A stretch of 64,000 bases of DNA from an uncultured Nitrososphaerales archaeon (GTDB lineage Archaea; Thermoproteota; Nitrososphaeria; Nitrososphaerales; Nitrososphaeraceae), in the NCBI GenBank assembly GCA_963695855.1, contig CAVOHZ010000008.1:256001-320000 (forward strand), written 5' to 3'. The translations under genes were made by a program, and so were the position numbers. The notes beneath the pieces were generated by a model. That model had not been told where the DNA came from, searched no databases, and saw nothing but the letters and a program-made list of their open reading frames with translations. Position 1 is the first letter of the stretch; every line of letters starts with the position of its first letter. Below are positions 2,536-58,482 of this stretch, piece by piece.

Positions 2536-2605
2536 GTCGGGAGTAATACCGATCGCGGTACAAAAATAAGAGTCTAATGTTTTAGTATAATGGATAATAT
2601 TTAGG
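2536..2605 (+). repeat. Dispersed att-like site, partial core plus arm A
   Basis: GTCGGGAGTAATACCGATCGCGGTACAAAAATAAGAGTCTAATGT; one of about 14 arm-A copies in the window. Confidence 0.9.
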
Positions 2606-2737
2606 AATTACTTATTTTATTATAAATTGTCTATATAATAAAGAATGTAAGGATCTGTTGAAATAAAAAGTAATGAAATTATGGCATTTAAAAATTATAA
2701 GATACAGAAATACAAGAAGGTTTTCAAGAACTTTCTT

Positions 2738-3361
2738 TTATTTACTGCGATCAAAGAGAACTTTATTCTTATTTGCTGCAACTTTATCCATTACTGGTTC
2801 TCTGTCATCAAGTGTTATTTCCATCGACGATTCTTTACCTACTTTAGTGCTAGTAGTATTGTCAGAAAATGGGCTATGATCATGTTGATTTCTATCTTTT
2901 AATTCGTTCTCTACCAAATTTTTGATTTGGCCTGCAGTAACACCAACTGTTTCTGGTTCTTTTTTTGTAGTTTTCGCTTTTTGTTTAGTTGCTATTGAAG
3001 AAGATTGTTGTTGTTCTTTTTTCTTTGTTTTTCCAGTCGATTTATTTTGAACTGATTTTTTTATTTTCTTTGTTATTGATTTTGCTACGTCTCTTGCTAC
3101 TGGAAAAGAAACACCTGACCTACTTACAGTTTGAGCTAATCTATCTGTATTGAATTTCTCCTCTCTTCCACTTGACCTTTTTAAAACTATATCTTTTTTA
3201 CTTTTCAAATTCGACTTACTGGTTCTTTTAGATTTTGGTTTATTTGAAATATTTGAGTTTAATAAATTAGATTTAGTTTTTTTTAATACTTTTTTCTTTT
3301 CTTTTTTGATATCATTTTTAATTTTTCTTCCTTTACTATTTTGTTTAGATTTTTTTATCAT
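2738..3361 (-). CDS. Lys-rich protein with a stand-alone ATP-cone-like domain
   Basis: VLKRSSGREEKFNTDRLAQTVSRSG...VTAGQIKNLVENELK resembles the ATP-cone consensus, with a basic N-terminus and an internal low-complexity insert. Confidence 0.65.
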   Translation of the reverse strand: MIKKSKQNSKGRKIKNDIKKEKKKVLKKTKSNLLNSNISNKPKSKRTSKSNLKSKKDIVLKRSSGREEKFNTDRLAQTVSRSGVSFPVARDVAKSITKKIKKSVQNKSTGKTKKKEQQQSSSIATKQKAKTTKKEPETVGVTAGQIKNLVENELKDRNQHDHSPFSDNTTSTKVGKESSMEITLDDREPVMDKVAANKNKVLFDRSK

Positions 3362-4248
3362 ATTGTATTATTTCTAGAATAATAAGAATAAATACAAATT
3401 TAAATATTTTCAAAACTTTAATTAAATTCATCTAATCTATTACAAAAAATAAGTCCTTTAAGTTAGGATAAACTGATTCTTTATCTTTATAAAGAAATAA
3501 ATTATATAACATAAAATTTCTCTGAAGTATCAAATGTACCTGGAAGATTTTATCCAAAGTAAATCTATGAATATATATGTTGCCTATTCTAATTCAGTTT
3601 AGGTTTTTGTTTTTTTTAAAACATGAAAAATTCATATTTCTAAGTTATATATTTTAAAGGCAAGAGTAAATCCTAATGCAAGGGACATGTCAAATTTGTG
3701 GTGCAAATAATGAAGAATTACAAGAAAAGAACTCATGATGGTCAAGTTGAAACGTATGTTATAATTAAGGATAATTATAAAGTAAAACATAAAAAAACTA
3801 ACAATAATTTAAAATGATTATCCTCTTTTTAAAATATTAAATAAAAAAATTATAATGAGCTATATTTTGCATTTATTCATTAACTCCATCATCCCAAAAA
3901 AACTGTAGTAACATTATCCAATCGATACTGCAACAGCAAAGTAGTATTAAAAGTATCTAATACAGGATTAGAACCAACGAGGATAGCATCGAATTTCTAT
4001 ATCTAAAGAACATCTTATGATTTTTAATATTTATGATCGATCTTATCAATATAAACAACACAATCTTCATGACCATATTATAAAATGAGTTGAGTTGAAT
4101 AATTGCTTCTTCAATATATCAAATGTCTCTGTCAAGTTAAGCAGTAAAAGCTATAGCTGAGAATATTCTCTTTATGACTTCAGCTAGTTAGTTCGTAAGA
4201 GTTAATATAATATCTTGTTTCATCAGAGCAATCCCATGACTAGCAGTA

Positions 4249-4273
4249 ACGGGTTCAAATCCCATCCTCTCCA
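4249..4273 (+). other. Orphan tRNA 3'-half-like sequence (T arm plus acceptor 3' strand)
   Basis: ACGGG-TTCAAAT-CCCAT-CCTCTCC-A; no matching GGAGAGG 5' strand seen upstream. Confidence 0.55.
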
Positions 4274-4333
4274 TTGAATGTTAGGTTCTAAGGATATTAG
4301 AAGTTCACATATTGGGGATTAAAAAGCGGAAAA

Positions 4334-4539
4334 GTTTGACTTGACTAAAATAGGGGTTGAACCACCAGGGATTGTATATAATCTCCGTTGGTAAAAGCAA
4401 GGTTTGAATTTGACTAAAATAGGTTTGAAACAAAGCAATTTATACTTAATTTGGATCATGTTTCACTCCCCGTTTGAATTTGACTAAAATAGTGTAATTT
4501 TTTGACACCGTTTGAATTTGACTAAAATAGGTTTGAAAC
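4334..4539 (+). CRISPR. Orphan CRISPR mini-array, 30-bp repeat GTTTGAATTTGACTAAAATAGGTTTGAAAC
   Basis: Repeats at 4334-4363 (degenerate), 4402-4431, 4472-4492 (truncated) and 4510-4539; spacers of 38 and 40 bp plus a 17-bp remnant; canonical GTTT...GAAAC ends; no cas genes recognised in the window. Confidence 0.85.
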
Positions 4540-4800
4540 TACCACTTTTGACACACTAGCATGATTAAAATCAAAAGAAAATGCATTCTTAGATATTTGT
4601 TTGGGTTGCCTTCAATCCTAAAATAGGGCTGTATCAAGAGTCATGTAAATGCAGAGATTCACAATTATAGTAAACTACTATTTGCCTCTTTGATAATTAT
4701 TTCCTGATAGATAGAGCTTTAGCTGAGTATATAATACTATGAGAAACATGGGAGAAGGATAAGTGATATCTTACAGATAGGACTAATGAATATGATTACA

Positions 4801-5526
4801 CAACTGTTAAGTTAACGATCTAGATTTAGCTGTGAACATTCTATTTCTAATCTATATAGTATGAATATTAGATTTGAACGAAATAGAACATCCACAATTG
4901 TAGTAATGTATTCTCTTTATCTATACTTTCTTGGTCTCAGTTTACGTAATACTTCTAAAGCACTAATAATTTTCAAGGACGATAAAAGAAGTCATCTTTC
5001 TGTTTGGAATTGGATACAAAGGTTTGGTTCATTGCAGATATACAAAAGGAAAAGAGTATCTGCATTCATAATAGATGAAACTATTATTCAGATTGGTGGT
5101 CGGCATTTCTGGCTATGGTTTTGTATTGAACCAGTACACAGTTCAGTGCTTGGAATTCATATCTCTGAAGAGAGAAATATGCTTGTTGCTGAAAAATTCA
5201 TAAGGTCTCTTGTATCAAAATATGGAAAACATACTGTATATACAGATAATGGTGGTACATGGTATGATAAACCATGCAACATAATTGGATTAAAACACTA
5301 TTTGCATTCACCATTTCAGAAAAGTTTGATGGAAAGAGTTAACCAGTATTTCAAGGATAGAACTGAATCTTTTGATGACTATTATCCATGTAGACAAATG
5401 GAATGTAATTTATTTCATGTTTATAATTGGATACAATTCTTTGTATCAATGTATAATGATACAATAGCAAATAATACTTATAATTTTCAGTTAAATGAGG
5501 TGAATGTTATCTTAAATTAACAGAGG
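4801..5526 (+). mobile_element. IS6-family element with transposase ORF 4861-5520
   Basis: DDE motifs [20 protein letters not shown]; imperfect terminal inverted repeats CTGTTAAGTTAA / TTAAATTAACAG. Confidence 0.88.
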
Positions 5527-5661
5527 CTATCAAATAAAGTATTATAGATTATATGTAATTATTAAACAAGAGAAAATTACATAGACCTCAATTATTGTAT
5601 CTTCATATTGTAATGATAAAATTTTTGACAATCTCTTAATAACTATGTTGTTCAAGGTAAC

Positions 5662-5847
5662 ATGATGATGTTTTATCACCATGATGATGATAGGTTTAAA
5701 AAAATTATAGATGAATTTATCTTATCTTCATCAGGTAATGAATCCTTAAGATATGCTCTAAAAAATATCGATGTACTAGCATCAAAATTAGGAATATCAT
5801 TTTATCATATGATATTTATATTAATTAAAAAACAATATAATCAATAG
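5662..5847 (+). CDS. Small hypothetical protein
   Basis: 61-aa ORF with plausible composition between two IS copies. Confidence 0.4.
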
Positions 5848-5869
5848 CAAAAAGATTATTAAATAATGA

Positions 5870-6378
5870 TGGTGAGTGTAGATAATGTTTTAATCCAATT
5901 ATGTTGCATGGTTTATCATACCATGTACCACCATTATCTGTATATACAGTATGTTTTCCATATTTTGATACAAGAGACCTTATGAATTTTTCAGCAACAA
6001 TCATATTCCTATCTTCTGATATATAGATTCCAAGCACGGAACTGTGTACTGGTTCAATACAAAACCATAGGCAGAAATGCTGGTTACCAATCTGAATAAT
6101 GGTCTCATCTATAATAATAAAAGCAGTTACTCTTTTTCGTTTATAGATCAGACAGGATCCAAATCTCTGAATCTAATTCCAAATAGAAACATAACTTCTC
6201 TTCTGATCTCTAAATATAGTTAATGCCTTAGACGTATTTCGTAGACTGAGACCAAGAAAATATAGATAAAAAGAATATATTACTATACAGGCACATGTTT
6301 TATTTCTTTCAAATTTGATTTTCATAGAATATTTAGAACATTCTCAGCAATAGCTTTTGCTGCTTATCTGAACGGAGC
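5870..6378 (-). pseudogene. IS6-family transposase remnant, 3'-truncated, with internal stops
   Basis: Inverted homolog of 4861-5310; ORF 5825-6037 repeats [22 protein letters not shown]. Confidence 0.85.
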
Positions 6379-6430
6379 CCAAGACTCTTAGAGTCTTCAG
6401 TTGTTACCATGCATTAGACTATAATATTAA

Positions 6431-6691
6431 TTAGTTGTTTTCGATGGTAGTTTGTAATAATTCTCCCATTTCGTTATGCATTTTAAGAAAGTTTAATCCT
6501 TTTTCGGTGGTCTTGAATGTGTGAGTCCCCTCAATGTATTCTATTAGGTTGTTTTCTATCAAAACAGAAAGATATTCTTTTAATTGGGTATAACTTAGAA
6601 AAGCTTTATACATAATTTTTGTCTTTGTTGTGCCTCCATTTGCAGCGTTAAGTATATTACTCACTATTTCGGTTCTACTTCTGTATTTCAT
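6431..6691 (-). CDS. Winged-helix transcriptional regulator (ArnR1-like/HTH_45 type)
   Basis: MKYRSRTEIVSNILNAANGGTTKTKIMYKAFLSYTQLKEYL...FKTTEKG; paralog at 19016-19276. Confidence 0.85.
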   Translation of the reverse strand: MKYRSRTEIVSNILNAANGGTTKTKIMYKAFLSYTQLKEYLSVLIENNLIEYIEGTHTFKTTEKGLNFLKMHNEMGELLQTTIENN

Positions 6692-7385
6692 AGTTGTTAT
6701 ATAAGCGATTTACTTATTTTAATATTCTGGTAAAAGAAAACAAAGGAAAGTTATAATAGAATCATTGTAGATACTAGTTACAATTAGAGAAAGAGAGACA
6801 AAATTTTTCGTTTTTTAATAATTTTATGAAGGAAAATGATAAAAATATGATTATGTTGTTGGTCGCAGCATTTTCTATGCTGTTATATTACGCTATTAAA
6901 CCATCTTAATCCAGTATGTCAATTCTATCAGAACGATTTGCTATTGGTCAAGAACCCAGTTTAGATTATTCTCTAAATTTCTTATCTTCTTTTAACTATT
7001 AATTTATTAGAATACTTTGGGTTAGTAAAACCACCTAAGTGTATTGGATAAAAACTTATTGGGCTCGTGCTGCAGGGAATATCTTTCACCTTTGAAATAA
7101 TGTTGATAGAGCGTGAATTCTATTAGTAGCCAATGTTTTTTCAATGCACAATCTGATTCCACCTCAAAAAGGAAAATATACATATCTCGGAAATTTAGAT
7201 AAAAATCACTTTGTTTTTCATCCATTATTTGTTTATAAAATACACCAGTTGAATAATCGATAATTCATATATTCTATTCAAATGATCCTGTAATAGTCGT
7301 CTATTTGACTAAATGTCATATCTGTATCAATTAATCCTCATCCTCTTCTTAGAATGTAAATCTTTATAATTAAAAAAATAGCATA

Positions 7386-7799
7386 TTATTTTGGATAGAT
7401 ATGCCATATTATATGCTTTCCAGACGAGATACAATCTATTCCAACATTATCTCCATCCTCTGTAGCCAGAGAAGCATTACAAGATAATCCACTTGTACCG
7501 TTTTTAATTATCTCACTCATCTGTTCTTTTAATTGTTGAGATGGTGCTAAACTTATTTCCTCTAATAGTTCTTCCTCAATTTTAATTAAATTATTACCTA
7601 CGATAGCAGATACAATTTTAGTAGAGTTATCTATGTTCCCTATCTTGTTTTGTTCAAACAGTAAAACATACAATTTTTCATCAGTATTTTCAAGATCTTG
7701 TCCGTTAACACGTTGTAATACTGTAATGGTATTACTCATATCAATGAATAAAGACAAAGAGAATGTTACAATCAAACATATTATTGATAGAATTTTCAT
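7386..7799 (-). CDS. Secreted/membrane-anchored hypothetical protein
   Basis: Signal-like MKILSIICLIVTFSLSLFI within ORF 7386-7931; true start probably near 7799. Confidence 0.55.
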   Translation of the reverse strand: MKILSIICLIVTFSLSLFIDMSNTITVLQRVNGQDLENTDEKLYVLLFEQNKIGNIDNSTKIVSAIVGNNLIKIEEELLEEISLAPSQQLKEQMSEIIKNGTSGLSCNASLATEDGDNVGIDCISSGKHIIWHIYPK

Positions 7800-8139
7800 T
7801 TTAATTGAAAAATAAGATAATACTATAAAAGTTTTTATCATGATATCGATAGATTTACCAAGTGAATTTGGACAATTTACTTTAATCATAGATTTTTCCC
7901 ATACTAAATGATTAGACAGAATTAAATACACTATAATATTCTATTTTTAATATATGGTATTGTAAAATTTTGTTTATTATGATGAGTTATTAAGTTAATC
8001 ATTTTCCAAATAGAACTTATGTAGTAGGGTTCTAACACCTTGTATTTACATTCTTAAAGATATTCTTATATCTTTTACCACATCTTTGAATTTGATTGAT
8101 AATTAACATAAAAAATAAATTGATAATAATAAAAATACA

Positions 8140-8730
8140 TTTTAGTGTATTTATTTGATTTTAGCTTTGGTTATGTGATAGAGATCATCATCACATGATA
8201 GTATTACTACAAGTTTGTACTTCCCTTTCTTTATGTAGTCGTTATCAGGAATATTTGCACGGACTGTATCATGTCCATGTGGTGGAGAATTGTCATCATA
8301 AAACTCTATCTGTTTGCCTTCGAGTTCAACGCTTTCGTCCTCTTCACTACCTGGTTAAGTGACTTGTCCGTTCAGAAATAATGCTTTGACAAAATCCATA
8401 AATCCACATGGGTATTTATACGATATTTCAATTTCCTCTTTTGGATTAAACTTTATTTTCTTTAATTTTGCATGATCATTTGTTAAAACCTTAGGATCAT
8501 TAAAATCTTGAATATAGTCTGCATCAATCTCATATTCTTTTCCATTTTCTTTTTTTTATTTTTATTGGATCAATATCATCAAATCTATCTGCATATGCTT
8601 GTAGTGACGGTAAACTAATAAGACTTATAGAAAAAAGTAATGCTATTGTATACAATACTATAATGGCATTATATGTTTTTTTCCCATTATTTTGATTCCA
8701 TAGCATGGTAGATAAATATTCTGGCCGCAT
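8140..8730 (-). pseudogene. Frameshifted secreted hypothetical protein
   Basis: Signal-peptide ORF 8530-8730 breaks at an A-run; coding-like sequence continues in other frames to about 8140. Confidence 0.45.
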
Positions 8731-8901
8731 GATTTTATTTGTTGTATTTTCTGCTTAAAACTCTTATTTGCTTGGGACCTAATTATAAATAACAAATAAA
8801 TTTAAATATTTTGGTATCTTTATAACAGTCACAATGAATAATACCATTAAAATAGATTACAAATCGTTTGGGTTGCCATTGGGAATATTGTTATTATTAC
8901 T

Positions 8902-9201
8902 ATGATTAGCAGTGGTGTTATTGATTCTGTATATGCAAGTCATAACAAAGTAAAAGTAGGTTGTAAAGACCTTGCTCTTGCTCTTATAACCTGGGACCAA
9001 TTATTAAGTATAGGAGATCCCGATGACATAGCAGAGAATGAGCATATATTAAATGAGGAAGGTGTAGAACCAGATTTATACGAAGATATAATTGACAAAC
9101 ACCTTGAAGATTTATTAGATGAAGCTGACGATGAATGCAATAATCTTGATAATGACATAGAAAGACTACTTGATGACATAGACTGCAAGTTACCATTCTA
9201 A
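8902..9201 (+). CDS. Acidic hypothetical protein, probably secreted (5' end uncertain)
   Basis: 99-aa D/E-rich ORF with VYA signal-cleavage-like motif. Confidence 0.55.
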   Translation: MISSGVIDSVYASHNKVKVGCKDLALALITWDQLLSIGDPDDIAENEHILNEEGVEPDLYEDIIDKHLEDLLDEADDECNNLDNDIERLLDDIDCKLPF

Positions 9202-9576
9202 CTTTTTTTGCATTTTGTTAAGTATATAAAGTAATTAATTGTTGTTTCTATTAGAACTATTATCATTTAAGCATTTTAATTTACCATAATATTTTTTTAT
9301 CTTTTTCTTTCCCATTTGTTTATAAAATGGTATTTTTTCCTCTGAAGGATTTATATCAAAATTGTGCTTTTAATTAGTTGAGTCATTACAATAAATTTTA
9401 AGGGAATTAAATATGTTAGACCCTCCGTAATAAAGTAGGATTAAATCATAGATATGATCTGGATTCAATTATAACTTAATTCAATATATTAGATGATTTT
9501 TTATGTTGTACAAAGTAATTATCCCTATTTTCGAATGGAACAATAGATTGAAATTTATCTTTCATTTTGAGATATA

Positions 9577-9604
9577 AATATTTTTTCGGCGCCGAAAAAA
9601 TATT
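9577..9604. repeat. Perfect 28-bp palindrome AATATTTTTTCGGCGCCGAAAAAATATT
   Basis: Seen directly; its 18-bp centre recurs at 55457-55474. Confidence 0.9.
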
Positions 9605-9896
9605 ATTACAAATATAAAAAAATTATTTTCATACAATTATCAGCAGGATGGCTGGAATGGCTCAGATATATGCCATCCTGTTGTCAGTTACCCATCTTTG
9701 GTGTAATGATATCATTACTTCGTATTTGTATTATTTATGATATTTGGTAGTAAAAATAAAAAATATTTTTTCATCGCATTTCATATTGATTGTCGATAAT
9801 AATTTAGCGCGTATACAATCTATTTGTATATTGGTAGACGAGTTGCACTTTAGTTTATAAGAGTATACATAATATAATTTGTTTCTTAGTTAGAGT

Positions 9897-10001
9897 CTAA
9901 CACCATCTACATGTCAGGCCAATAAAAGGAATTGTTGCAATTACAGTTATCCCTACAATCATTCCTATTATGCAGATGTTGAATTTTGTTAGCTTGAACA
10001 T
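9897..10001 (-). CDS. Putative 34-aa single-TM peptide MFKLTKFNICIIGMIVGITVIATIPFIGLTCRWC
   Basis: Same-length in-frame homolog at 55746-55850 with synonymous changes. Confidence 0.5.
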   Translation of the reverse strand: MFKLTKFNICIIGMIVGITVIATIPFIGLTCRWC

Positions 10002-10288
10002 GTTCCTTTATTCTTCTTAGAATAGAAAAAGATTTTCCTCGTCTGAAAATGGAGATGGCTGTAAGAAAGAAACATAATTTTGAACATAAGAGAGTAAAGA
10101 CCAATAGAGTTATAAGGGACCATTTGGTAGTAACTTGAGTTACATAAATATGTTTAAATATATTGAAAACTATAAATTTTCGTTTAAAACATAAACTGAA
10201 AATATTATCAATAGGTCTAATGTTATAGTACAAAGAGATATTATTTAAGATTTACTTTAAATCTTAATAAAAATAAAGTTGAATTTTG

Positions 10289-11401
10289 CTACTTCAACAA
10301 TTTTTTAATGGTGTTTATTAATATCTTTCTATCAACGGGTTTTATCAATATTTGTTCCTTGGATAAACCAGGAACTATAGTTAATATTTCATCTGATATA
10401 TCTAAAACAGTTATAAAAAGAATTTTGATTGTTGGGTCTATTGATTTTATTTGTTGTTCTAATTGAAATCCATTCAAATCTTTCATTTTGATATCGAGTG
10501 TTACTAGTAGATCATTAAAATTTGGAAGATCTTTAATAAAATTCAATGCATTTGAGGAATTTGTAAAAGAAATTATTTCATAACCATCATCCTTTAAAAA
10601 TGATTCATAAGTAAAAAGTATATCTGGGTCATCATCGACTAAAATTATTCTTTTGTTATTGTTTCTTTGAAGAAGAAACGAATTGTATTTACTTTTAGTT
10701 TGTATAAAGTCGTCAGTAGAGGAACCTGACATTTGCTTCCTGAGAAAGTATGTAGTACTACTATCATCATCAAGAGACAAATTATTAACTTTTTTTATAC
10801 TATATGTAGGGTATGCAATTGTTTCGGTTATCATACATTCACCATTATTTATAAAATTATAATTGTTAGCAATATTAGAAAACGATTTTAAAATTCTATA
10901 AAAATTATCTCCAATAATTATTTGATTTGAAATAGACAGTGATGAATTTATCTTTGAACAGCGGTTTACAGTTGACCCGAATAAATCTATCTGGCTATAA
11001 TCACCAACTAAAGCTAAATCTAAAACACCAAAATCCATACTAATTTTATAGCTGAATGGGGGAAGATGCTGCTTGGACAATTCTTGATTAACAGTATGAC
11101 GGGAATCTAAGATTTTCAAGCCACATTCAATAACTTCTCTAAAAGCGTTTTCGTTTTTATTATCAGATGCTTTTGGAAAATATAATAATAAACAATCACC
11201 AATATTTTTAATAACTTTCCCACCATAATTTTTAACTATTTTAGATACTGAATTCATAAATTTAGAATAATACATTCTAATATGTTCTAAATTGTCCATT
11301 GTAATAGTATTTTTAGTCGAATCTACCAAATTAATAAAAACTACACAACTCTTCATTGAATCGCCAGAAAATCTTATTTCTTCTGAGGAAAAATTTTTCA
11401 T
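10289..11401 (-). CDS. Class III adenylate/guanylate cyclase domain fused to a C-terminal response-regulator receiver
   Basis: FINLVDSTK, KNIGDCLL, DLFGSTVNRCSKI; receiver ILVDDDPD, LDIKMKDLNGF, IKPV. Confidence 0.88.
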   Translation of the reverse strand: MKNFSSEEIRFSGDSMKSCVVFINLVDSTKNTITMDNLEHIRMYYSKFMNSVSKIVKNYGGKVIKNIGDCLLLYFPKASDNKNENAFREVIECGLKILDSRHTVNQELSKQHLPPFSYKISMDFGVLDLALVGDYSQIDLFGSTVNRCSKINSSLSISNQIIIGDNFYRILKSFSNIANNYNFINNGECMITETIAYPTYSIKKVNNLSLDDDSSTTYFLRKQMSGSSTDDFIQTKSKYNSFLLQRNNNKRIILVDDDPDILFTYESFLKDDGYEIISFTNSSNALNFIKDLPNFNDLLVTLDIKMKDLNGFQLEQQIKSIDPTIKILFITVLDISDEILTIVPGLSKEQILIKPVDRKILINTIKKLLK

Positions 11402-11889
11402 ATTATTTCACACGAAACTAAACAACTAATAATTTTTTAGAGTAGAATAAAAGGGGTAAAAAATTATTTAAAAAGCTAAAGAATTTTTGAATATTTAATG
11501 TTATATTTTCTATCAATTCTCTTTGATTGTATAAAAAATTATCTGTATCTTCTTTTATATTGTCATTTTGTTTTTTATTTACGTCTTTTAAGTTTGCCAT
11601 ATTAGTAACTAAATTTATTATAGTTTCTGCAACTTATAAACTATAGTTAAAAGTAAAAATTAGGTAAAATTATACTAAAATATATATAAAATAGATATTC
11701 TTTATTAGATTTCATATTACTAACAATTTACTTTTTTTTTTATCAAAAAAATTGAAATCATCTTTTTTCTTTATTCACGATAAGAGGGTGGGGTTTTTAG
11801 ATGACAACATACATATCCATACTGCGGTATAAGGTAGAATTTAGTTAAATTAAATATAACATTTTAACATGAAATATAATAATTAACAA

Positions 11890-12445
11890 ATGACTCATTT
11901 ATCTTTCCCAAACTTATTATGTAAATTAGTAAATTTAGGAGAACTTTCAATGGAAGATGCTAGAATTATAGTATCTTATGAGTCATGACATATCTAAATA
12001 TCTTTATGAAGTTTCACATCCCTATAAAATAGATAATGTATTAAAATTTATTAAATATAATTATGATGATTTTAGGTTACATAAATCAATAATCTTTGGT
12101 ATAAACTATAAAAACAAATCAGAACCAATTCAGTTACTAGCGAAAACTATAGGTAATAAAGATATTGGCTATGTTTACAAAAAAAGCAAATATAGGATAT
12201 TGGATTGGTAAACAATATCAAGGTAAACGCTTGACAACAAGATGTGTAAAGCTAGTTGTTAACTATGGATTTGACATATTAAAATTGATAGCAATTTCAG
12301 TTTATTTCTTTACTCAAAATAAAGCTTGCATAAGAGTTTCGGTAAAAAAATAAGTTTGTAAAGACAGAAGGGGTAAAGGAATATCATCCTCTGTCAAATA
12401 GGAACAGAAAATCTTTAGTTTATACAATAAAAAATAAGAAATGAT
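11890..12445 (+). pseudogene. RimJ/RimL-type GNAT acetyltransferase, frameshifted
   Basis: Overlapping ORFs 11978-12211 and 12165-12353; ANIGYWIGKQYQGK...VVNYGFDILKL. Confidence 0.75.
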
Positions 12446-12497
12446 AAATTCCATTGAACGTAACTTTATACCTATATCAAGACCAGTCTATCATTGA

Positions 12498-12560
12498 TAA
12501 TACCGATAGAGGTACAAAAATAAGAGTCTACTGTATGGTAATAAATAAGATAATATTTAA
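12498..12560 (+). repeat. att-like arm A copy
   Basis: TAATACCGATAGAGGTACAAAAATAAGAGTCTACTGTATGGTA. Confidence 0.85.
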
Positions 12561-12727
12561 CAATTACTTTTGAACAATTATAAAAGTTTGAATTCTCTAA
12601 ATTTAGAAATAAGAAGAAAGAAGAAAATATTAAAATTAAAATAAGAAATTAAAATTTCAGGTATTTCTTGTTTTGAATTTCTTGTTTTGAAGTCTTGACA
12701 ATTAGTTAATCCTAGGCGTGATATACA

Positions 12728-12766
12728 GGAAGTAATACTGATAGCGGTTCTAAAATAAGAGTCCAA
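12728..12766 (+). repeat. att-like arm A copy (degenerate)
   Basis: GGAAGTAATACTGATAGCGGTTCTAAAATAAGAGTCCAA. Confidence 0.8.
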
Positions 12767-13232
12767 GTTTATAGTAAAAGCGAAATGATTTAAGTTTATC
12801 TGAATTTTAAAATTAAAATTAGTGAAGTAAAAAGTATTTTTTATTGAAAACAGAATTTATTTCAGTAAACTATATTTTTTTTGAACTTCTGCTAAAACTT
12901 TTTCTACTGTAGTTCCTATTATTTTACTAAAGGTGGCTAAATGAGTAAACATTACTATGGTTTCAACCGTTTTAGGTAAAACCATCATTAATTTATGACT
13001 AGTTTACGGTACCCGTTTTATAGATTTATATTTCTAACTCAGTTCTAATCTATCTTGGTTATCTTTTTTTGGAGTTAGAACCTTCTAAAATTCAATATTT
13101 TTGGAAATAATTGTAAAAATCTTATTTTAATGCATTTTTAAATCAAATACAATTAAGGTTTATCTTTTGGGAAACATTTTATCAAATAAATTTCTCTAAA
13201 TATTTGGAATTATAATTGTTCAAAATAAAAAA

Positions 13233-13466
13233 TTAGGGTTTAATTTTATTTTTCTGTAAATCTCCATAATCTTTGAGCAAAAATACTTCTCCTCCATTAA
13301 ATCCTTCAACATCGTTTTTTGACACTTTATATTCATAGCGACCATCATGTATTGTAACAATATCTCCTTCTACACAAATGACATTTCCAACATCTTGATT
13401 ATCTTTTGAACGTACAGGTTTGAGTATTATTTTATCCCAATTGTATACTGCTGGTTCAGACGACAT
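13233..13466 (-). CDS. Small PRC-barrel/DUF2171-like hypothetical protein
   Basis: MSSEPAVYNWDKIILKPVRSKDNQDVGNV...YKVSKNDVEGFNGGEVFL. Confidence 0.55.
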   Translation of the reverse strand: MSSEPAVYNWDKIILKPVRSKDNQDVGNVICVEGDIVTIHDGRYEYKVSKNDVEGFNGGEVFLLKDYGDLQKNKIKP

Positions 13467-13623
13467 GTCAACATATATTACGTAAATCAACTATTTAAGA
13501 TTTATTAGATTTAAAATTCTTATTGTTATATGAATATTCGTTTTAATACGTTACCTCTTCTCATGTTTATTTTTATTGATTTTGTCTTATCTATAAATAA
13601 TCAATTTAATTATTATAATTTAC

Positions 13624-14636: not shown

Positions 14637-14652
14637 ATAATTTACCCCAAGT

Positions 14653-19690: not shown

Positions 19691-19693
19691 TTA

Positions 19694-47262: not shown

Positions 47263-47274
47263 TTAACTAATTTA

Positions 47275-47405: not shown

Positions 47406-48091
47406 GTTTTTAGAGTTTAAAACCGATAAGATACACAAAATTCATATAATAAATGGAGATTTATAATACTGCAATATATTATTTTATAAAAACACTCCAC
47501 AATAAAAAAAATTATTATGAATAGGAGAAAGGATTTGTCTGCTAGAATTGACAATTAAAAAACATAAGCTAGTTGGTGTAGAAACTGTCTTTTCTATATC
47601 AAGAATATTTGGAAATATGTTACTCCCATTACACTCTTTTTATTCTAAGTTTACATCTGTCTAACATTTCATCTACAGTGTCAGTATCATTTTTGTTTTA
47701 TGCATTTCATTCAATTATTTTAACTAGTTTTATGCTAAATTTTTTTATCCGGTTAAAAATAAGGATAGCATCTGTTCCATCAAAAAAACAACAATAGGAA
47801 AGAAAGAAACAGATAATTCGATATGAAAAAGAAAAGGTAAGGATTACAAACTTTGATATTGTAATTACGAATGATGTAAATTTTGATTCAAGTTAGAGCA
47901 AATATGTTAAACGTTATTATAGTAATCATTAATTGTCAAGCTTCATACGATCAATATGTTATTTTAAGACTGATAAAAACACTTATGGATTATGAAACAA
48001 AAAATTTTGATTCTATAAATAATTCCAAAATTCTAATACATAGAGAATATCTTTTTACATAATTGATAAAAATAATTTGTTTGTTTGATAA

Positions 48092-49024
48092 TTATTGACA
48101 GAATTTTCTTAGTTCTTTAACAAATTCAATAGTTTTGTTTACATCATAATTTTTTTCTGCATTCATGGCAAGAATTACTCTATCTACGCCAGATCTTTCG
48201 AGCATAGATAAATCAGAACCAATTTCATCAATTGTTTCTCCAGTCATAGGAGACCGATTACTTTTTTTTTCAGAGCTACTTCCCACAAGATAAGGAAATG
48301 TTAAAATAGTTAGATCAAAATCCTTCCTTTCTCTTGTACTTTTTTTAATCGAATCATTGAACATTTTAATGGAATTTTCAAAATATTCAAATGATCCTGC
48401 TAAGGTTCCTATATAACCATCTCCATATTTTATCATACGCTCAAACGTCTTTGGCGAGAAACCCCCAAGAAAAATTTTAGGGTGAGGTTTTTGAATAGGC
48501 TTTGGATCAATTATTGACTTCGGAATTTTGTAAAAGTCTTCATTAAATTCTACAATGTCTTCTGTCCATACCTTTTTCATAGCTTTGAGAATTTCGTTTG
48601 CTCTTTCTCCTCTTTTCTCATAAGGAATATTAGCGGCAAGATACTCATCTTTTGACCATCCAATACCAAAACCACAGATTGTCCTACCTTCAGATAAAAT
48701 GTCTATTGTAGTAAACTCTTTAGCAAGTGTTATAGGATTATGAAAAATCATATCAATAATACAAGTTCCTAAATTTACCTTTGTTGTATTAGCCGCAATA
48801 AATGCTAATGTTGTTAATGGATCTAAAACATTCTTAAAAAATTCAGGCCATTCTCTTTTATCTGGAGTCCCGGGATACGGCTGTTGGGGATTGAGAGCAT
48901 ATAGCATTCTATCATATACCCAAAGTGATTCAAATCCTTCTTGTTCTGCAAGTTGAACAAATCTAATTAGATTTTCTTTAGTAGCATTTATGCCAAATTG
49001 AGGAACAGCTAATCCTACTTTCAT
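48092..49024 (-). CDS. LLM-class F420-dependent oxidoreductase
   Basis: AEQEGFESLWVYD, LDPLTTLAFIAANT, LSEGR...GIGW, PKPIQKPHP. Confidence 0.92.
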   Translation of the reverse strand: MKVGLAVPQFGINATKENLIRFVQLAEQEGFESLWVYDRMLYALNPQQPYPGTPDKREWPEFFKNVLDPLTTLAFIAANTTKVNLGTCIIDMIFHNPITLAKEFTTIDILSEGRTICGFGIGWSKDEYLAANIPYEKRGERANEILKAMKKVWTEDIVEFNEDFYKIPKSIIDPKPIQKPHPKIFLGGFSPKTFERMIKYGDGYIGTLAGSFEYFENSIKMFNDSIKKSTRERKDFDLTILTFPYLVGSSSEKKSNRSPMTGETIDEIGSDLSMLERSGVDRVILAMNAEKNYDVNKTIEFVKELRKFCQ

Positions 49025-49085
49025 ATCTATTATTAATTTTTATACTATAAAGACATAATGTAATCAATATTAGTATCTATTTTTC

Positions 49086-49526
49086 TTAATTAGAATATTT
49101 CCAACTTATAGTCTTTTGAATATCAATTATAATGCAAATGTCTCCAATTCCTACCATTTTTTTATACTGAAGATATTTTTCTGACAATAGTGAATGAGCT
49201 TTTTCTATCGTATCTCTATCTTTTAACCTATTTACTATTTTTGCTTTACCTTGGATTATTAAATAAGAAAGATTACTCCAGTCTTTATCGTCATATGTAT
49301 CAATTAGAAAAGAAATATTAGGATTTTTTTGTATATTTTTTACTCTTTTTAACTGGTTTGAATTTACCCTTTTAGGTTTGTCATCTATTGGAATGAAGAT
49401 ATTATTACCATCAAATGCAAATACCACGGGTATTAGGTAAGGTTGATTAATCTCAGGATCTACTGTTGCTAATCTGGCTATTTTTGAATTATTCAAATTT
49501 TCTAATGTTTTTCTGTTTTGCATCAA
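49086..49526 (-). CDS. PPOX-class (pyridoxamine 5'-phosphate oxidase-like) probable F420-dependent enzyme
   Basis: ARLATV, PYLIPVVFA, IDDKPK, LKRVKNIQKNP, DWSNL. Confidence 0.88.
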   Translation of the reverse strand: MMQNRKTLENLNNSKIARLATVDPEINQPYLIPVVFAFDGNNIFIPIDDKPKRVNSNQLKRVKNIQKNPNISFLIDTYDDKDWSNLSYLIIQGKAKIVNRLKDRDTIEKAHSLLSEKYLQYKKMVGIGDICIIIDIQKTISWKYSN

Positions 49527-49839
49527 TCTACTGCTATAGAAAAGATCTATAACTTAAATTTTTATACTTGTGATTTTTTATATGATAAAATCTTTTATCT
49601 ATAATTTAGATAGAACAACAAATAATATAAAAACATAATAGATGTTTTCCACTTGCTCCCATTAACTAAATGGAGTCCATACTTCCAAATAGGTATATTT
49701 AATATGTTACTAAAGTACTTTATATTATAAAGATTAAATGGGACCAGATAACTTAAATGGGTTCACTACTGTTGATCAGCTAGATTTGTGGGATTTGAAT
49801 GCTTCTATAAAGTGGGGATAGATATTTTCTAATATTAGT

Positions 49840-50889
49840 TGTTGTACTTACACAGATAGGTAACAGATTCACTTACCAACATGGGTAACACTTTTTATCT
49901 GCTTATTTGTTTTGATATTCTTACAACTATTTAATCTTCCTTTCATAAGAAACATTTCAGATGGTGTGTGACCATTGATTCCACCATGTTCTCTTGTTTC
50001 ATTGTATGCTTTGACAAACATGGAATATCTTCTCTTTCCTTCTTCTCTGTTGGAAATATTTTCTATTGCCAAAAATTCATTTTTGACTATCTTGTTATAT
50101 GCTTCAATTTTACCCTGTAGTTGTGGATATCTAGCAGGTATGGATTTATCTTTAATGTTGTTACGTTGTAGAAAACGTCTGAAGATTTTGGATGTAAGCT
50201 GTTTACCATTATCATGCATTATTTTGTGAGGTTTACCATTCTCTACTATGTAGTCTTCCAGTACCTGTAGTACATCTACACTTCGTTTTCTTTCAGACCA
50301 GTCACTTGTTACCTTTCTTGAACAGTCATCTTCACAACTGATAAAATAGTTCTTTTGAGTAGAATTCTCAAGGTAAAATGGTCCTAAAATGTCCATCTGT
50401 ACCATTTGATTGGGTTTTTCCATTGCAAATCTTTTGTATTTTCTATTTCTGATCTTGCATCTTAGTATGTTCAGTCCATGTCTTTTCAGTATCTTGTAGA
50501 TGGTTTTTGTACTGAAGGAGATATCATTCAGTCGTCTTAACCTGAACCTTATGCGATTGCAACCAAATCTTTTTGTTACACGTAAATCCAATATTTCCTG
50601 TTCTATCTCATTTGTTACTTTTCCAGGTTGTATATTATATGGTTTCCTACTTTTATCCCGTAAACCGTCTATTCCATTCTCAAGGTACCTGTTCTTCCAT
50701 TTGTAGTATGACTTTCTAGATGTATGATATCTATTACAGATATTAGTTACAGTATCTCCAGTCGACTCTTTCTCATGAATTAAATTAAATTTTGTTTGTA
50801 ATTCTATTTTTGTATACACTTCCTAGCAGATTAGGAAGTGTTACCTATCTCGGTAAATGAAATTGTAACCTATGTTGGTAAGTACAACA
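49840..50889 (-). mobile_element. Intact IS481-family element; transposase 49869-50819
   Basis: Ends TGTTGTACTTA...TAAGTACAACA; 6-bp target duplication ATTAGT at 49834-49839 and 50890-50895; HTH plus QMD/HDNG/GKIE integrase core. Confidence 0.93.
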
Positions 50890-51202
50890 ATTAGTTATTA
50901 TATTAATTCTAGTCTACTGAAGAGGATCAAATAAGAAAATGGATAAAGTGAATGAAGATGTTAATGGTGACTTAGCAGATAAACTAATTATGTTATTAGA
51001 AGACTACTAACAATACTAAGAACAAACAATATATTTTATCATATTGTCAAAGATTATAATGAAGTTTAAAAAATAATGTATGTTATTTGTACACAAAAGT
51101 ACTATTTTGCAGCAATGCTAGGACAGTAGGATCTATCCTACCAGCATCGGACATGGTGAAGTAATGAGTTGACGTGTCTGCCTATGCTCCATAGGGTTTA
51201 TT

Positions 51203-51237
51203 CTCTTATTATTGCACCGCTATCGGTGTTACTCCCG
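51203..51237 (-). repeat. att-like arm A plus partial core (minus)
   Basis: CTCTTATTATTGCACCGCTATCGGTGTTACTCCCG. Confidence 0.85.
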
Positions 51238-52569: not shown

Positions 52570-53300
52570 GGGCTGTGTTAATTTAAGCAAATAGTTTTAG
52601 CTGTGAACATCCTATCTCTAATAAATGCTTGTTAAATTCATTAGAAATAGAACATCCACAGTTATGGTAAATTATTCTCTTTATCTATTCTTTCTTGGTC
52701 TCAGTCTACGTAATACTTCCAAAACGTTAGTCATATTTAGAGATGAAAAAAGGAGTTATGTTGTTGTATGAAACTGGATTCAATGATTTGGTTCATTGCA
52801 GATTTACAAGAAAAAAAGAATATAAGCGTTCATCATAGAGGAAACTATTGTTCAGATAGGAAATCATTACTTTTTGGTTATGGATTTCTATTGAACCAAT
52901 TGACAAATTTGTGCTTGGAATCTATATTTTACAAGAGAGAAATATGCATGTTGCTGAGAAATTTATTAGATCATTAGTTGAGAAATACGGAAGACGTCCA
53001 GTTTATACTGATCGTGGAACATGATATCCAGAAGTATGCAATATAATTGGATTAAAACATCATCTACATTCACCTTTAGAGGAAAGTCTGATAGAAAGAG
53101 TGATGCAGTATTTCAAGGATAGGACAGAATGTTTTGATGATTATTATCCATGTAAACAATCTGGAAAAACAGAAGGAGAAGAATGCAATATATTACATGT
53201 ATATAATTGAATCAAGTTATTCATTTATCTGTATAATACAAAGATTAGATAGGAATTCCTTTCAATATTGGGCGTAAAATAATTTTAACTTTACAGGACC
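52570..53300 (+). pseudogene. IS6-family element, inactivated
   Basis: Inverted repeats at both ends; shares lesions with 40958-41682. Confidence 0.85.
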
Positions 53301-56093: not shown

Positions 56094-56107
56094 GTCGGGA
56101 GTTGACC
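56094..56107 (+). repeat. Partial att-like core with arm-C-type junction
   Basis: GTCGGGAGTTGACC. Confidence 0.5.
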
Positions 56108-56217
56108 AGACATAGTTTTAGTGCTCGATTACAAATTTATATTATAAACTAAATGTCCTTTCTCTATGATTGAAAAAAGTGGAAAGAAGAAGAGGTTGAT
56201 GATAATGATGATTAAAG

Positions 56218-56334
56218 GGCGCTGTTAACTTGATAAAGTAATAGGTATGTTCTACACTTTTATATTATGTTCTGTGCTCAATTTCAGAAGAATTTTTCAA
56301 TTTATTTCATAAATTTTCCTTAACTTACAGAGCC
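56218..56334. mobile_element. Possible IS6-derived MITE-like remnant
   Basis: GGCGCTGTTAACTT...TTAACTTACAGAGCC resemble the IS6 ends in this window; no ORF between them. Confidence 0.45.
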
Positions 56335-56876
56335 ACCTTGCATATTGCTTTTATTATCATAAACTTATTTTAAAATTGTTTTTGAAATTCAAATGAACGA
56401 AATTATCGGCTATATTTGGGCTTGGCTTAATTCTTATTATAGCAGTAGTCAATAATATAATAAAATTAGTTTTTGATTACTTAAAATTACTTAATTTCAA
56501 ATCCAATTTTAGAATTAAAATAACTACTATTAAGTATCAATTATATAATATCAAATAATATTTGCTCATCTCATTCACATAAACAAAAAAGTTTATAATT
56601 CAAAATACAAAGAGGAAGCATTATAATAACTTATACACTTCTGCTATTACCTTTTGGTTGAAGGTGTACTGTATCTAATTTGTTCCTTTAATAATACGAA
56701 TTATCGTATCTTAAATTACTAGAATTATTTTAATTTCCAACGTTATTATTAATAGTAACAAGAATTAAAAAAATTTATTAATATCAAATTATTCGTTATA
56801 GCATAAAAATGTGATTAAGAGTAAGATATTTTTTTATAACTAATTGCAATATATTAATTTATAAGATTCAAAGAGA

Positions 56877-57647
56877 TTATCTGAGAGGGTTATGACGCTG
56901 CGCCCAGTCAATTATTGAACCATCATATACTCTTACATTATGGAAGCCAGCCTGCTTTAATTGCAAGTATTTATGAGAAGCTCTAGCACCAGAGTGACAA
57001 TAGCATATAACCTCCTTGTCATTAGTAATTCCATTATGCTCAAAATCCTTTTGTAATTCTTCTTTACTTTTGAGTATAGTAATACCATTACTATCTAGTC
57101 CTTCTTCCCAACTATGTAATATAGAACCTGGAATTCTAGCCTGCATATGTTCCTGAGGAGTTCTTGAATCAACAATTACGGTCTTGGTATCATTTTGTTT
57201 CGTTTTAATCATCTCTTCATCTGCTCTGATTGTAGAATTTGGTTTAGATATAAATTGAGTATGATTAATAGGTGGAACAGCACGAGTAATTGGCAACCCT
57301 GCTTTCTGCCATGTATTGAATCCAATATCTAAGAGCTTTGTATTTGTATGACCATGATACATCAAAGTCCAGACTATTCTTGCTGCTGAAGGATCCATAT
57401 ATTCACCATAAACTACAACTGTTTTAGTGTCATCAATACCAAGATCACCAAAAATCTTTTCGGCAGTTGGACTATCTACTACCAAGTTTGCCCCGTTATT
57501 AGCAAGTGAAATTATACGCTCAACTCCAAGGACTCTTGCATTTTTAATGTGTCCAAACCTATATGACAGATTTCCCCGGCCATCTATAACTACCAATTCA
57601 GGATCATCTAGATGTGCTACGAGCCATTTATTATCTACAGTTACCAT
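56877..57647 (-). CDS. Two-domain rhodanese/sulfurtransferase
   Basis: GHIKNA, DSRT...ARIPGS, active-site CYCHSGARA, VYDGSIIDW. Confidence 0.92.
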   Translation of the reverse strand: MVTVDNKWLVAHLDDPELVVIDGRGNLSYRFGHIKNARVLGVERIISLANNGANLVVDSPTAEKIFGDLGIDDTKTVVVYGEYMDPSAARIVWTLMYHGHTNTKLLDIGFNTWQKAGLPITRAVPPINHTQFISKPNSTIRADEEMIKTKQNDTKTVIVDSRTPQEHMQARIPGSILHSWEEGLDSNGITILKSKEELQKDFEHNGITNDKEVICYCHSGARASHKYLQLKQAGFHNVRVYDGSIIDWAQRHNPLR

Positions 57648-57829
57648 ATTATATAGTATAACTATCTAATCTATATTTGATTAGTTTTCTTTAACATCAT
57701 CTTTTTTATTTTTTATAAATTTGCATAGGATCTGTACGAGATATAAAGTAGAATTCATGCTTACATCTTAGGATAGACATACTACGAAGTAGCAGAATGG
57801 TAGTGATGTTGTTAATAAGTAATTGCCTT

Positions 57830-58121
57830 AGAGCTATCTCAAAATTATCATCCTATAAACAATTATGCTATTTCCTAATTGCACAAGACCAAGATACTTT
57901 TCTACCTTCTTTTCATATCTTGTAAACAATTTCCTGTATCTGTTATGCCATGAGTTTGTTCTCTCAAGTACCCGTCTTCCTGCAGGATATTTCTTGTTCA
58001 GTTTCTTTTCTTCTCGTCTATGGCGTATATGTGGAATGTATCCTCTCTTGACAATTTCTTGTTCTACTTCTCTGGAATGATATGCCCTGTCAAGACATAG
58101 ATTCTGTTTCTGCATCCTCAA
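57830..58121 (-). pseudogene. IS5-family orfB 3' fragment
   Basis: Inverted near-identical copy of 42119-42395. Confidence 0.85.
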
Positions 58122-58380
58122 ATATCCTGAAAATTCAATTAAAGATTTAAGAACACTACGTGGTTAAAGAATACAAAATCTTCTATACATCAGACGGAAG
58201 CAAAAGCATTTTTCATGTTTGAAGAATTTGGGGTATAATACCCTATTATTTGATTGGGCCAAAGCAACAGACATATGTTTAGACCGAATTTTATAAGTCA
58301 TTAATTCAAATGCTAACTTAAGAATTTCAACGGATCTCTTAATGAATCGTCTAATTACCTTAACTAAATATATCTAAATG

Positions 58381-58482
58381 AGGTGAACCCAAGGAAAGTG
58401 CGGGCACGTCGGGAGTAATACCGATAGCGGTGCAAAAATAAGAGTCTAATGTATGGTAAAAGAGATATTATTTAAGATTTTC
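58381..58482 (+). repeat. att-like site: left arm, core and arm A
   Basis: GGTGAACCCAAGGAAAGTGCGGGCACGTCGGGAGTAATACCGATAGCGGTGCAAAAATAAGAGTCTAATGTATGG. Confidence 0.92.

Follow-up and report, generated by a model that had tools for sequence, protein, structure and literature searches.

Integrase-less units beside integrase-bearing elements are covered by the CIME concept, and in dif/Xer systems (IMEX arrays and pdif modules) modules bounded by short sites are acted on in trans by a recombinase encoded elsewhere. For Thaumarchaeota, passages of Krupovic et al. 2019 (PMC6563490) report that 39 (57%) of the iMGE integrations identified are in tRNA genes, that cryptic integrated elements can be as small as 2.6 kb, and that elements with tyrosine recombinases form arrays through re-use of an integration site. 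Integrons have been reported in Archaea as well (Ghaly et al., bioRxiv 10.1101/2022.02.06.479319).

The window analysed here, 64,000 nucleotides of contig CAVOHZ010000008.1, is accessory chromosomal DNA of a Nitrososphaeraceae archaeon, rich in IS elements and cut into blocks of one to three genes by genus-specific junction repeats. It resembles the arrays built by accretion at tRNA att sites in that the repeated core is a tRNA 3' end, an integrase gene adjoins the tRNA, direct core repeats flank units, and integrase-less units lie beside an integrase-bearing one. Unlike those arrays, however, it is made up mostly of single-gene units, and the joint itself is a genus-wide repeat. The core has been lost from most copies, and the arrays are remote from the tRNA-Lys gene and present also in genomes where the integrase was not found.

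In the window there are about 24 composite sites. A full junction runs from a module U through a 16-nt copy of the 3' end of tRNA-Lys(UUU), the core, to arm A, B or C and then to a tail, D1 or D2, the composite being 75-130 nt long. Sites and associated genes are as follows.

2524-2613, plus strand: junction site with a 9-nt partial core, arm A and tail D1, between the convergent nfi (endonuclease V) and ATP-cone genes (Pfam)
8018-8050, plus: partial B-D2 remnant
10215-10263, plus: D1 remnant 3' of a cyclase-receiver gene, arm A lost; kept at the matching position in G035
12497-12570, plus: A-D1 site without core
12721-12801, plus: A-D1 site with a GGAAGT core remnant
15810-15920, plus: U-core-B-D2 site
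17006-17092, plus: degenerate arm A; positional orthologue in G035 identical at 44/50 by our count
19505-19580, plus: B-D2 module of a recurring B-D2...A-D1 composite
19623-19692, plus: GGGAGT-A-D1 site, D1 abutting the stop codon of a minus-strand ABM-monooxygenase gene
22655-22900, plus: U-core-C site, arm C holding the 3' end of a small minus-strand zinc-ribbon ORF
23060-23205, plus: U-core-A-D2 site, arm A with 0 mismatches
33335-33412, plus: X-core-A-D1 site, core 14/16, the attR-like far end of the 2.3-kb integrase unit
34261-35544, minus: intact tyrosine integrase of 427 aa with a C-terminal four-Cys zinc ribbon
35595-35661, plus: U-core-A junction at the integrase 5' end, core perfect, U variant TATATGAACCCGAATACATAA
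38120-38240, plus: U-core-B-D2 site, upstream boundary of the 430-aa gene cassette
38301-39593, plus: 430-aa gene of no known family; this cassette is kept in 11 species solely between the flanking modules
39691-39787, plus: U-core-B-D2 site, downstream boundary of the same cassette
40150-40220, plus: V-A-D1 site without core
41760-41869, minus: U-core-A-D1 site in the left copy (41762-42398) of a 637-bp inverted repeat
45731-45770, minus: arm A, downstream boundary of the 231-aa gene cassette
45912-46607, minus: 231-aa gene of no known family
46840-46953, minus: U-core-A-D2 site, upstream boundary of the 231-aa cassette
47118-47360, minus: U-core-C site, 92% identical to 22655-22900
51198-51237, minus: arm A with a CCGGGAGT remnant
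56094-56140, plus: partial core (GTCGGGAGT) with an additional arm type that is distinct from C
56335-56382, plus: D2 remnant of a partial B/D2 site
58370-58490, plus: U-core-A-D1 site in the right copy (57842-58474) of the inverted repeat

Arm A, with about 38 conserved nt, has 10 matches in the window at up to three mismatches against 0 expected (100 shuffles), and relaxed matching adds copies at 12734, 17007, 33351 and 51197. The total of 14 (10 plus, 4 minus) agrees to within a few bases with the positions given in an earlier note on this DNA. The core, CGGGCCCGTCGGGAGT, likewise has 10 matches at up to two mismatches against 0 expected. The arm-B sites of that note (15815, 38131 and 39700) and its partial sites at 8018, 19503 and 56335 are all present, the last three as B/D2; two of its arm-C sites, 22665 and 47320, hold, whereas 56094 carries a partial core and a different arm. 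The module boundary falls at one identical nucleotide, directly after GGGAGT, for arms A, B and C and for the tRNA body. Most copies of arm A have neither U nor most of the core, and these are as well preserved as the core-bearing copies.

The last 16 nt of a tRNA gene on the same contig as the window (G000:C8:2734-2821), an intact gene with an intron, are the reverse complement of the core. ARAGORN labels this gene 'tRNA-Stop(tta)' and calls two homologous genes tRNA-Lys(ttt); its anticodon loop, CTTTTAT, is in our reading that of Lys(UUU). Within the window itself ARAGORN detects no tRNA genes. The core is a tRNA 3' end, and its use as an att core, as proposed in the earlier note, is supported. 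Local alignment of the arms to the tRNA body, on the other hand, was no better than for shuffles (the observed score being reached in 47-490 of 500 trials), so that of the tRNA-derived sites first proposed the core stands, as an exact tRNA 3' end, and the arms do not. Directly after the tRNA gene lies an integrase gene (2892-4172) whose product is 80% identical to the window integrase. A GGGTTCA motif is found about 8 nt downstream of the tRNA end at the real tRNA-Lys gene and at both integrase genes; the U modules keep this motif, which adjoins integrase genes of several tRNA specificities. U and the core would be expected to be the parts recognised by a tyrosine integrase that targets tRNA-Lys. 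Each of four genomes from other genera has a single copy of the tRNA end, compared with five in G012, four of them beside arm A; core copy number thus tracks the presence of arm A.

The window integrase, which the earlier note had supposed to need repair, has an intact ORF colinear with its relatives, and the cleanest junction does adjoin it as that note had claimed (35612-35661, perfect core). The gene sits in a 2.3-kb unit of the form core-U-int-...-D1-A-core, with direct A-core repeats at its flanks. The two cores, 35612-35627 (16/16) and 33335-33350 (14/16), are direct repeats of the tRNA 3' end, and since they differ at 2 of 16 positions the integration event is not recent. The U variant TATATGAACCCGAATACATAA is the integrase-proximal arm and is found too beside intact tRNA-Lys. 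An intact tRNA gene (Lys, Arg, Pro or Ala) lies immediately upstream in 26 of 58 loci of integrase relatives, supporting the assignment of the window integrase to a tRNA-targeting family. Arg179, Lys207, Arg298, His299, Trp320 and Tyr330 are invariant in 15 aligned integrase sequences, and we read them as the likely catalytic set. No Pfam model matches the protein at E ≤ 0.01, and its family matches are weak (phrog_1 integrase, 3.8e-7; XerA, 7e-5), the best in NCBIfam being XerA with 22.5 bits, where the cut-off is 220. Residues 187-218 and 294-336 are poorly modelled by AlphaFold.

Arm A is present in all 25 genomes of the genus, at 7-139 copies each, and was found in none of 78 further genomes from the order; the composite repeat has hundreds of copies across this genus of soil ammonia-oxidising archaea. 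The integrase was found in 20 of the 25 (this query, E ≤ 1e-20). The co-occurrence of sites and integrase family expected in the earlier note fails in both directions: the five genomes in which this query found no integrase keep A arrays, a finding that the note itself counted against its proposal, and arm A is missing from all four other-genus genomes with a member of the integrase family. G012, 98% complete and with no integrase match at that threshold, has a 14-site array. Arrays without any integrase nearby occur, and arm A lies upstream of the integrase in just three of the 58 integrase loci. The exact core/A joint occurs in at least 119 metagenome contigs; in the 71 joint-bearing contigs analysed, most have a U-type left flank and six carry joint and integrase together. 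There is no coupling between arm A and the integrase, and the link between sites and the window integrase holds for a subset of sites only.

The 430-aa and 231-aa genes were each compared across 11-12 species. In almost all pairs homology goes no further than the modules on either side, the sole exception being one pair of close relatives. In colinear alignments of the 430-aa gene from 11 species, with at least 1 kb of flank available on most sides, homology never extends beyond about -190 or +240, the positions of the flanking A/B-D modules. The downstream boundary of this cassette is A-D2 or A-D1 instead in nine of ten other species, and the upstream module type of the 231-aa cassette also varies by species. 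The 231-aa gene is 95-97% identical in G010, G018 and G001, in unrelated contexts, against 73-90% for the few other shared segments compared. Both blocks tested thus recur as the same site-bounded cassette in unrelated surroundings. The part of the array at 600-19700 has the same gene order in another species, G035, implying that shuffling is not rapid everywhere. A 4.1-kb indel between G000 and G035 is not exactly bounded by sites. Neighbouring sites in G000 are co-oriented in 29 of 34 pairs, as is every site seen in the arrays G010:C141 and G012:C16; genes flank the sites in both orientations, with no fixed relation to the site.

What, then, brought these segments together? The explanation we favour, to which we give an even chance of being right, is that genus-specific junction repeats were seeded by integration at a tRNA-Lys att site and now mark the points at which cassettes join and are exchanged. 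It starts from what is observed, namely the build of the junctions and the derivation of their core from a tRNA, their occurrence throughout the genus, their shared orientation and the homology breakpoints at modules; the order of events and the enzyme that acts are what we infer. Recombination at the att core of tRNA-Lys would have stacked small integrative units with arm A in tandem, an accretion of the kind known from integrated elements that share a single att site in an array. The U-core-A joint would then have become a dispersed, co-oriented repeat joining unrelated DNA segments, and it is at these joints that cassettes may since have changed place and passed from species to species. Where a site has a core, the integrase could have moved them; the alternative is homologous recombination, with the 75-130-nt repeats as its substrate.

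A bolder version, which we regard as rather unlikely, is a genus-wide archaeal system of gene-cassette exchange. The composite joints would here be true recombination sites, at which single-gene circles are excised, re-inserted and passed between species by an integrase of the tRNA-Lys type or by another recombinase acting in trans. If true, this would be a functional analogue of integrons and pdif modules, with unrelated sites and enzymes, in soil ammonia oxidisers. As in dif/Xer modules, the bounds are copies of a short site; unlike them, the sites are direct rather than alternating inverted repeats and lack the dif-like dyad (28 nt, two inverted 11-nt arms and a 6-nt spacer), the best dyads pairing 7-9 of 11.

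The earlier note had proposed an integron-like platform, still active, at which cassettes that lack an integrase of their own, with one composite att site each, are captured, excised and reshuffled by this integrase. The attP-like U-core-A composition, the GGGTTCA kept in U modules and found beside integrase genes, the bounding of single-gene blocks by co-oriented sites and the perfect site next to an intact integrase would all fit, as would the likeness to integrons in having arrays of small cassettes with a repeated separating site and one cassette in different contexts. Integrase-less arrays such as that of G012, the integrase family without arm A in all four other-genus genomes, the loss of the core from most sites and the partial synteny between species nevertheless make it quite unlikely. 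The site is conserved in sequence and not in structure: DNA folding of three site types, on both strands, gave z-scores of -0.5 to -1.9 and only local hairpins of 4-7 bp, with no attC-like fold. No integron-integrase model is among the NCBIfam models listed for the protein at E ≤ 1, no attI/Pc arrangement is present, and genes run both ways. The junction system is not an integron; co-orientation, one- to three-gene blocks and site-bounded homology speak for the proposal, and the missing attC fold, the lack of a single platform integrase and the genes in both orientations against it. The circular forms and alternative core junctions that it predicted were not found in the short metagenome contigs available (0 of 80 circular, and no reliable excision joint).

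Could arm A instead be a host cis-acting element under selection, such as an operator or upstream site, a bidirectional terminator or an insulator, the arrays arising by tandem gene duplication and the breakpoints being incidental? In G012, four of eight paralogous secreted-protein genes have it some 70 nt before their start codon, with a box TTTAAATAT roughly 25 nt ahead of the ATG, and A/B-D2 lies 100-160 nt upstream of the 430-aa gene in eight of 11 species. Arm A contains a 4-bp dyad, ACCG-ATAG-CGGT, and its reverse strand carries the oligo-T TTATTTTT; oligo-T tracts of this kind end archaeal transcripts. Uncompensated changes occur in the dyad, however, and copies cluster in accessory, IS-rich regions rather than being spread genome-wide. 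Orthologous or positionally matching copies drift like neutral DNA: the nfi sites of G000 and G014 are, as we count them, roughly 74% identical, and the 17007 site agrees with that of G035 at 44 of 50 positions. Co-orientation over tens of kilobases, whatever the direction of the genes, would be unexpected of an operator, and neither the tRNA core nor U is explained, so that we consider this reading quite improbable.

MITE-like non-autonomous transposable repeats (A-D and B-D) with a preference for ...GGAGT targets, the core being a favoured target or hitch-hiker and the integrase irrelevant, are very unlikely: the repeats are, like MITEs and REP-like repeats, short, genus-restricted, multi-copy and intergenic, with a gene 3'-end bias (27 convergent, 34 tandem and 6 divergent among the 67 of 107 sites with both neighbours called), graded conservation of GGGAGT in the left flank and a co-orientation that strand-specific single-strand transposition could yield, but their modules bound homology rather than interrupt it. 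Filled and empty sites with continuous flanks were not seen, homology ending at the modules in all but the one close pair. The MITE or IS ends that the earlier note named as a rival were looked for, with no terminal inverted repeats standing out (best dyads 7-9 of 11, in AT-rich tails) and no target duplication at the one indel junction examined. Viral contigs gave no match to the repeat. As for the partner enzymes expected of an IS200/IS605-derived repeat (PATE/REP), a 99.9%-complete genome has no Y1 transposase above the cut-off and no TnpB (PF07282); PF01797 (Y1/HUH) reaches at best 22.4 bits, below its cut-off of 23, in a single ORF (G000:C8:562.5 kb) that is remote from all A sites.

Finally, two individual sites have counterparts elsewhere: the nfi site at 2524-2613 is present in G014 in decayed form, and an arm resembling that of 56094-56140 is found at G000:C10:274158.

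The junction sites of the window are mosaics of modules, each built from a left module (usually U, less often V or X), a 16-nt core, one arm (A, B, C or a rarer type) and a tail, D1 or D2. That these repeat sites are real, as the earlier note proposed, is clear from shuffled sequences, in which no matches are expected either to the 34-nt arm A, found 10 times in the window at ≤3 mismatches, or to the core, also found 10 times, at ≤2 mismatches. Mapped by BLAST from five full-length sites, the window holds 21 composite sites, a total raised further by three remnants, read by sequence, at 8018, 56094 and 56335. Arms A, B and C share with the tRNA body the nucleotide at which the module boundary falls, immediately after GGGAGT. 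ARAGORN finds no tRNA genes within the window, and a tRNA origin of arms A, B and C was rejected after a test against the tRNA-Lys body. The window has no Rfam matches at the gathering score, and the sole match at E≤10 in 22500-23300 is a chance, snoRNA-like one; Rfam gives no support for a structured RNA. Neither a marked single-strand fold nor a dif-like dyad was found at them. On no structural count is the array an integron. A small zinc-ribbon ORF (CPSC...CRDCG; window ~22757-22960, minus strand) terminates just before an arm C, with a 6-bp hairpin (GTTACC...GGTAAC) after it; this arm C is found again at 47118-47360.

Features of the source genome (3.55 Mb, 11 contigs, ~31% G+C), in coordinates of the window (C8:256001-320000) or of its contig, C8
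C8:2734-2821, intact tRNA gene with an intron; the core, reverse-complemented, matches its final 16 nt exactly
C8:2892-17503 (L135), integrated element at tRNA-Lys, with integrase, RadA-like ATPase, ApeA-HEPN defence protein, YgjP peptidase and type I restriction-modification
Window 38301-39593, 430-aa gene, with U-core-B-D2 at both ends
Window 45912-46607, 231-aa gene, with a pattern like that of the 430-aa gene
Window 41762-42398 and 57842-58474, 637-bp inverted repeat, 96% identical, holding U-core-A-D1 and bracketing a 15.4-kb segment
Window 4804-5530, 24478-25137 and 52576-53300; 13624-14637; 49835-50900; 62403-63573, IS copies, a very high load

Judged by its anticodon loop, the tRNA that ends in the core is Lys(UUU) and its ARAGORN label is wrong; two homologous genes are called Lys(ttt) by the same program. 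An integrase gene begins ~70 nt past this tRNA-Lys, its product 80% identical to the window integrase, and the spacer TTATGTATTCGGGTTCATATAC... is common to this gap and to that between the window core at 35612-35627 and its integrase. The element at the true tRNA-Lys looks like an ordinary integrated element, and is followed by a TBP gene at C8 17731-18294. The integrase of the window, 427 aa long, is intact; its tyrosine-recombinase matches are weak but consistent, and it has no match in Pfam. Residues R179, K207, R298, H299, W320 and Y330 and four C-terminal cysteines are invariant in 15 aligned relatives; the structure model is of low confidence (mean pLDDT 65, pTM 0.38; catalytic part <50). 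Read along the minus strand, the modules and genes here run A, core, U, integrase, IS-fragment ORF, D1, A, core (14/16), X, giving a 2.3-kb integrase unit bounded by direct A-core repeats.

The integrase family is widespread in Nitrososphaeraceae; the names in its record titles are Ca. Nitrosocosmicus, Nitrososphaera and Ca. Nitrosopolaris. Among the 58 loci with sufficient DNA upstream, the integrase is directly preceded by an intact tRNA (Lys, Arg, Pro or Ala) in 26, by tRNA 3' fragments in others, and by arm A in only three. At one locus (L054) the upstream region holds a head-to-head joint, a U-like module and the first core bases followed by an inverted full core, as if recombination had passed through the palindromic GGGCCC in the acceptor stem. 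Many N-terminal fragments of the family (residues 1-60 to 1-150) are scattered over the source genome, ~12 places in a single search, several adjoining tRNA genes (e.g. C3:91202-91468, at tRNA-Met), and look like relics of older integrations.

How did the core come to be joined to these arms? Most likely the joint arose when DNA integrated at the tRNA-Lys att core, given the sharp boundary after GGGAGT, the kind of trace that an integrase leaves on crossing over at a tRNA att site, together with the integrase-type U motif and the direct A-core repeats at the integrase unit. The joint would later have spread through the genus, with the core lost from most copies and arrays outlasting the integrase; this genus-wide spread, core loss and presence of integrase-free arrays show that it now acts as a dispersed repeat where cassettes are joined.

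The distribution of arm A was scanned with a sequence-only model that covers A and 8 flanking nt at either end. All 25 genomes of the genus carry it, with 7-139 copies apiece and more than 900 in total across these 25 species. The source genome has 49 copies at ≤7 mismatches, concentrated in a few accessory regions, and ~113 module sites overall. The same model finds none in five same-family genomes of other genera, and none was found in 73 genomes from other families of the order or in four genomes from other, named genera in which the integrase family is present; viral contigs have no exact match to a 27-nt pattern from arm A. The integrase is found in 20 of the 25 genus genomes (E≤1e-20). 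One genus genome, G012 (98% complete, 20 contigs), has no integrase match at this threshold and yet holds 17 A copies, so that the sites are not tied to the integrase as the earlier note had supposed. The 17 copies lie in a run of ≥14 A/B sites, all in one orientation, beside a tRNA-Pro gene (G012:C16:288-319 kb). Each of the four other-genus genomes has a single copy of the tRNA-Lys 3' end, as against five in G012, where four of the five are joined to A; the extra cores thus go with A and not with the integrase. The exact core/A joint is present on at least 119 metagenome contigs. Eighty were fetched, and nine without arm A within 6 mismatches were excluded from the flank table; among the 71 analysed, six also carry an integrase, which in about four of them stands directly behind the U variant that neighbours the window integrase. 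In G012:C16:290-322 kb (L051-L053), eight paralogous genes alternate with A/B sites; their products, of ~170-185 aa, all have a signal-peptide-like N-terminus, and four of the genes have A ~70 nt upstream of the ATG and a TTTAAATAT box at ~-25.

Among the products encoded in the window's accessory blocks are a metal-efflux transporter, phosphatases, cyclase-receiver signalling proteins and oxidoreductases, and two cassettes were compared across species. Of ten other species with the 430-aa gene, seven have an A-D2, U-core-A-D2 or B-type module upstream of it, and nine have an A site ~150 nt past its stop; in colinear pairwise alignments, with at least 1 kb of flank present on most sides, homology stops by about -190 and +240. 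For the 231-aa gene, an A site lies 126-154 nt past the stop at 7 of 12 loci, the upstream module varies by species (U-core-A-D2, D2 only, U-degenerate core-B-D2, A-D1 or none), and homology stops at the modules in every pair except one of close relatives. Since homology ends at them, the modules are joints between unrelated segments rather than insertions into continuous flanks, and the idea of cassettes bounded by sites in differing contexts is borne out by both genes. The 231-aa gene is 95-97% identical in G010, G018 and G001, three other genomes of the genus, against 73-90% for the few other shared segments compared, which suggests its recent transfer between species.

Cassette exchange could be site-specific, or could proceed by homologous recombination between the 75-130-nt repeats. 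Window 600-19700 is colinear with G035:C63, from another genus member, save for IS elements and a few indels, so that shuffling is not rapid in every part. The 4.1-kb indel in this comparison has no site as boundary, and no att-like ends were found at the 1.6-kb and 4.1-kb indels when G000 (the source genome), G014 and G035 were compared. Orthologous or positionally matching A copies drift as neutral DNA does. The circular or alternative core junctions looked for on the strength of the earlier note were not found in short metagenome contigs, which showed no excised forms; none of 80 contigs has a terminal overlap of ≥20 nt. The 20 sequencing sets found to share words with the window are all of metagenome contigs, none of RNA, and the best has 0.54 of the sampled words. 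Joints 35653>39771, 35649>39760 and 38197>39762, in four sets (X1-X4) compared with window 31000-50999, have short sides of 27-28 letters and, rather than excisions, are best read as relatives' A-D2/B-D2 sites, weightless either way. A 461-bp tandem duplication lies at window 42942-43702 (300 nt at 100% identity), and one X1 contig has the single-copy form (joint 42941>43403, 190-letter side).

For 67 of 107 A sites an ORF is called on either side; 27 of these 67 lie between convergent genes, 34 between tandem and 6 between divergent ones, a bias towards gene 3' ends. Neighbouring sites ≤30 kb apart in the source genome are co-oriented in 29 of 34 pairs, as are all sites in arrays of G010:C141 (10 sites), G012:C16, G014:C23, G001:C39 and G035:C63. 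The window's four minus-strand A copies are confined to 41.76-58.47 kb, and every A site within the 15.4-kb segment bracketed by the 637-bp repeat is inverted. This segment is probably one inversion; because the minus-strand copies lie within the inverted-repeat span, turning it back would give all 14 copies the same orientation.

Soil ammonia-oxidising archaea have large, IS-rich genomes, and to our knowledge little is known of how their accessory genes move. With the repeat family, the joints between blocks of accessory genes have a concrete marker, defined by sequence and valid genus-wide. If the joints are recombination sites, they would represent a second, independent route to cassette arrays in Archaea, and cassette exchange could be tested with defined substrates; if they are merely old integration scars, they still chart where and how these genomes were assembled. 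The junction array resembles accretion arrays of integrated elements, which are mentioned for archaeal tyrosine-recombinase elements (Krupovic et al. 2019, PMC6563490), but differs from them in its single-gene units and genus-wide repeat family. No description of the repeat was found in the literature searched, and the att tables in the supplements of PMC6563490 may list related sites; the Nitrosocosmicus literature on insertion sequences, repeats and genomic islands yielded nothing relevant.

Protein-family searches found no Y1 transposase above the cut-off and no TnpB. A single near-cut-off ORF of 313 aa (C8:562507-563448; L134:1507-2448) has an IS200-type Y1 transposase match of 20-22 bits (cut-off 23), with no A site close by. 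Among the IS families, a 219-aa transposase has many tens of copies in the genome and a 298-aa one ~40, and two more families have many copies, 99% identical. Finally, the dnaJ-dnaK-grpE cluster (window 25513-29109, minus strand) stands at 39-46% G+C amid ~29% G+C, a composition typical of a transferred bacterial-type chaperone operon.
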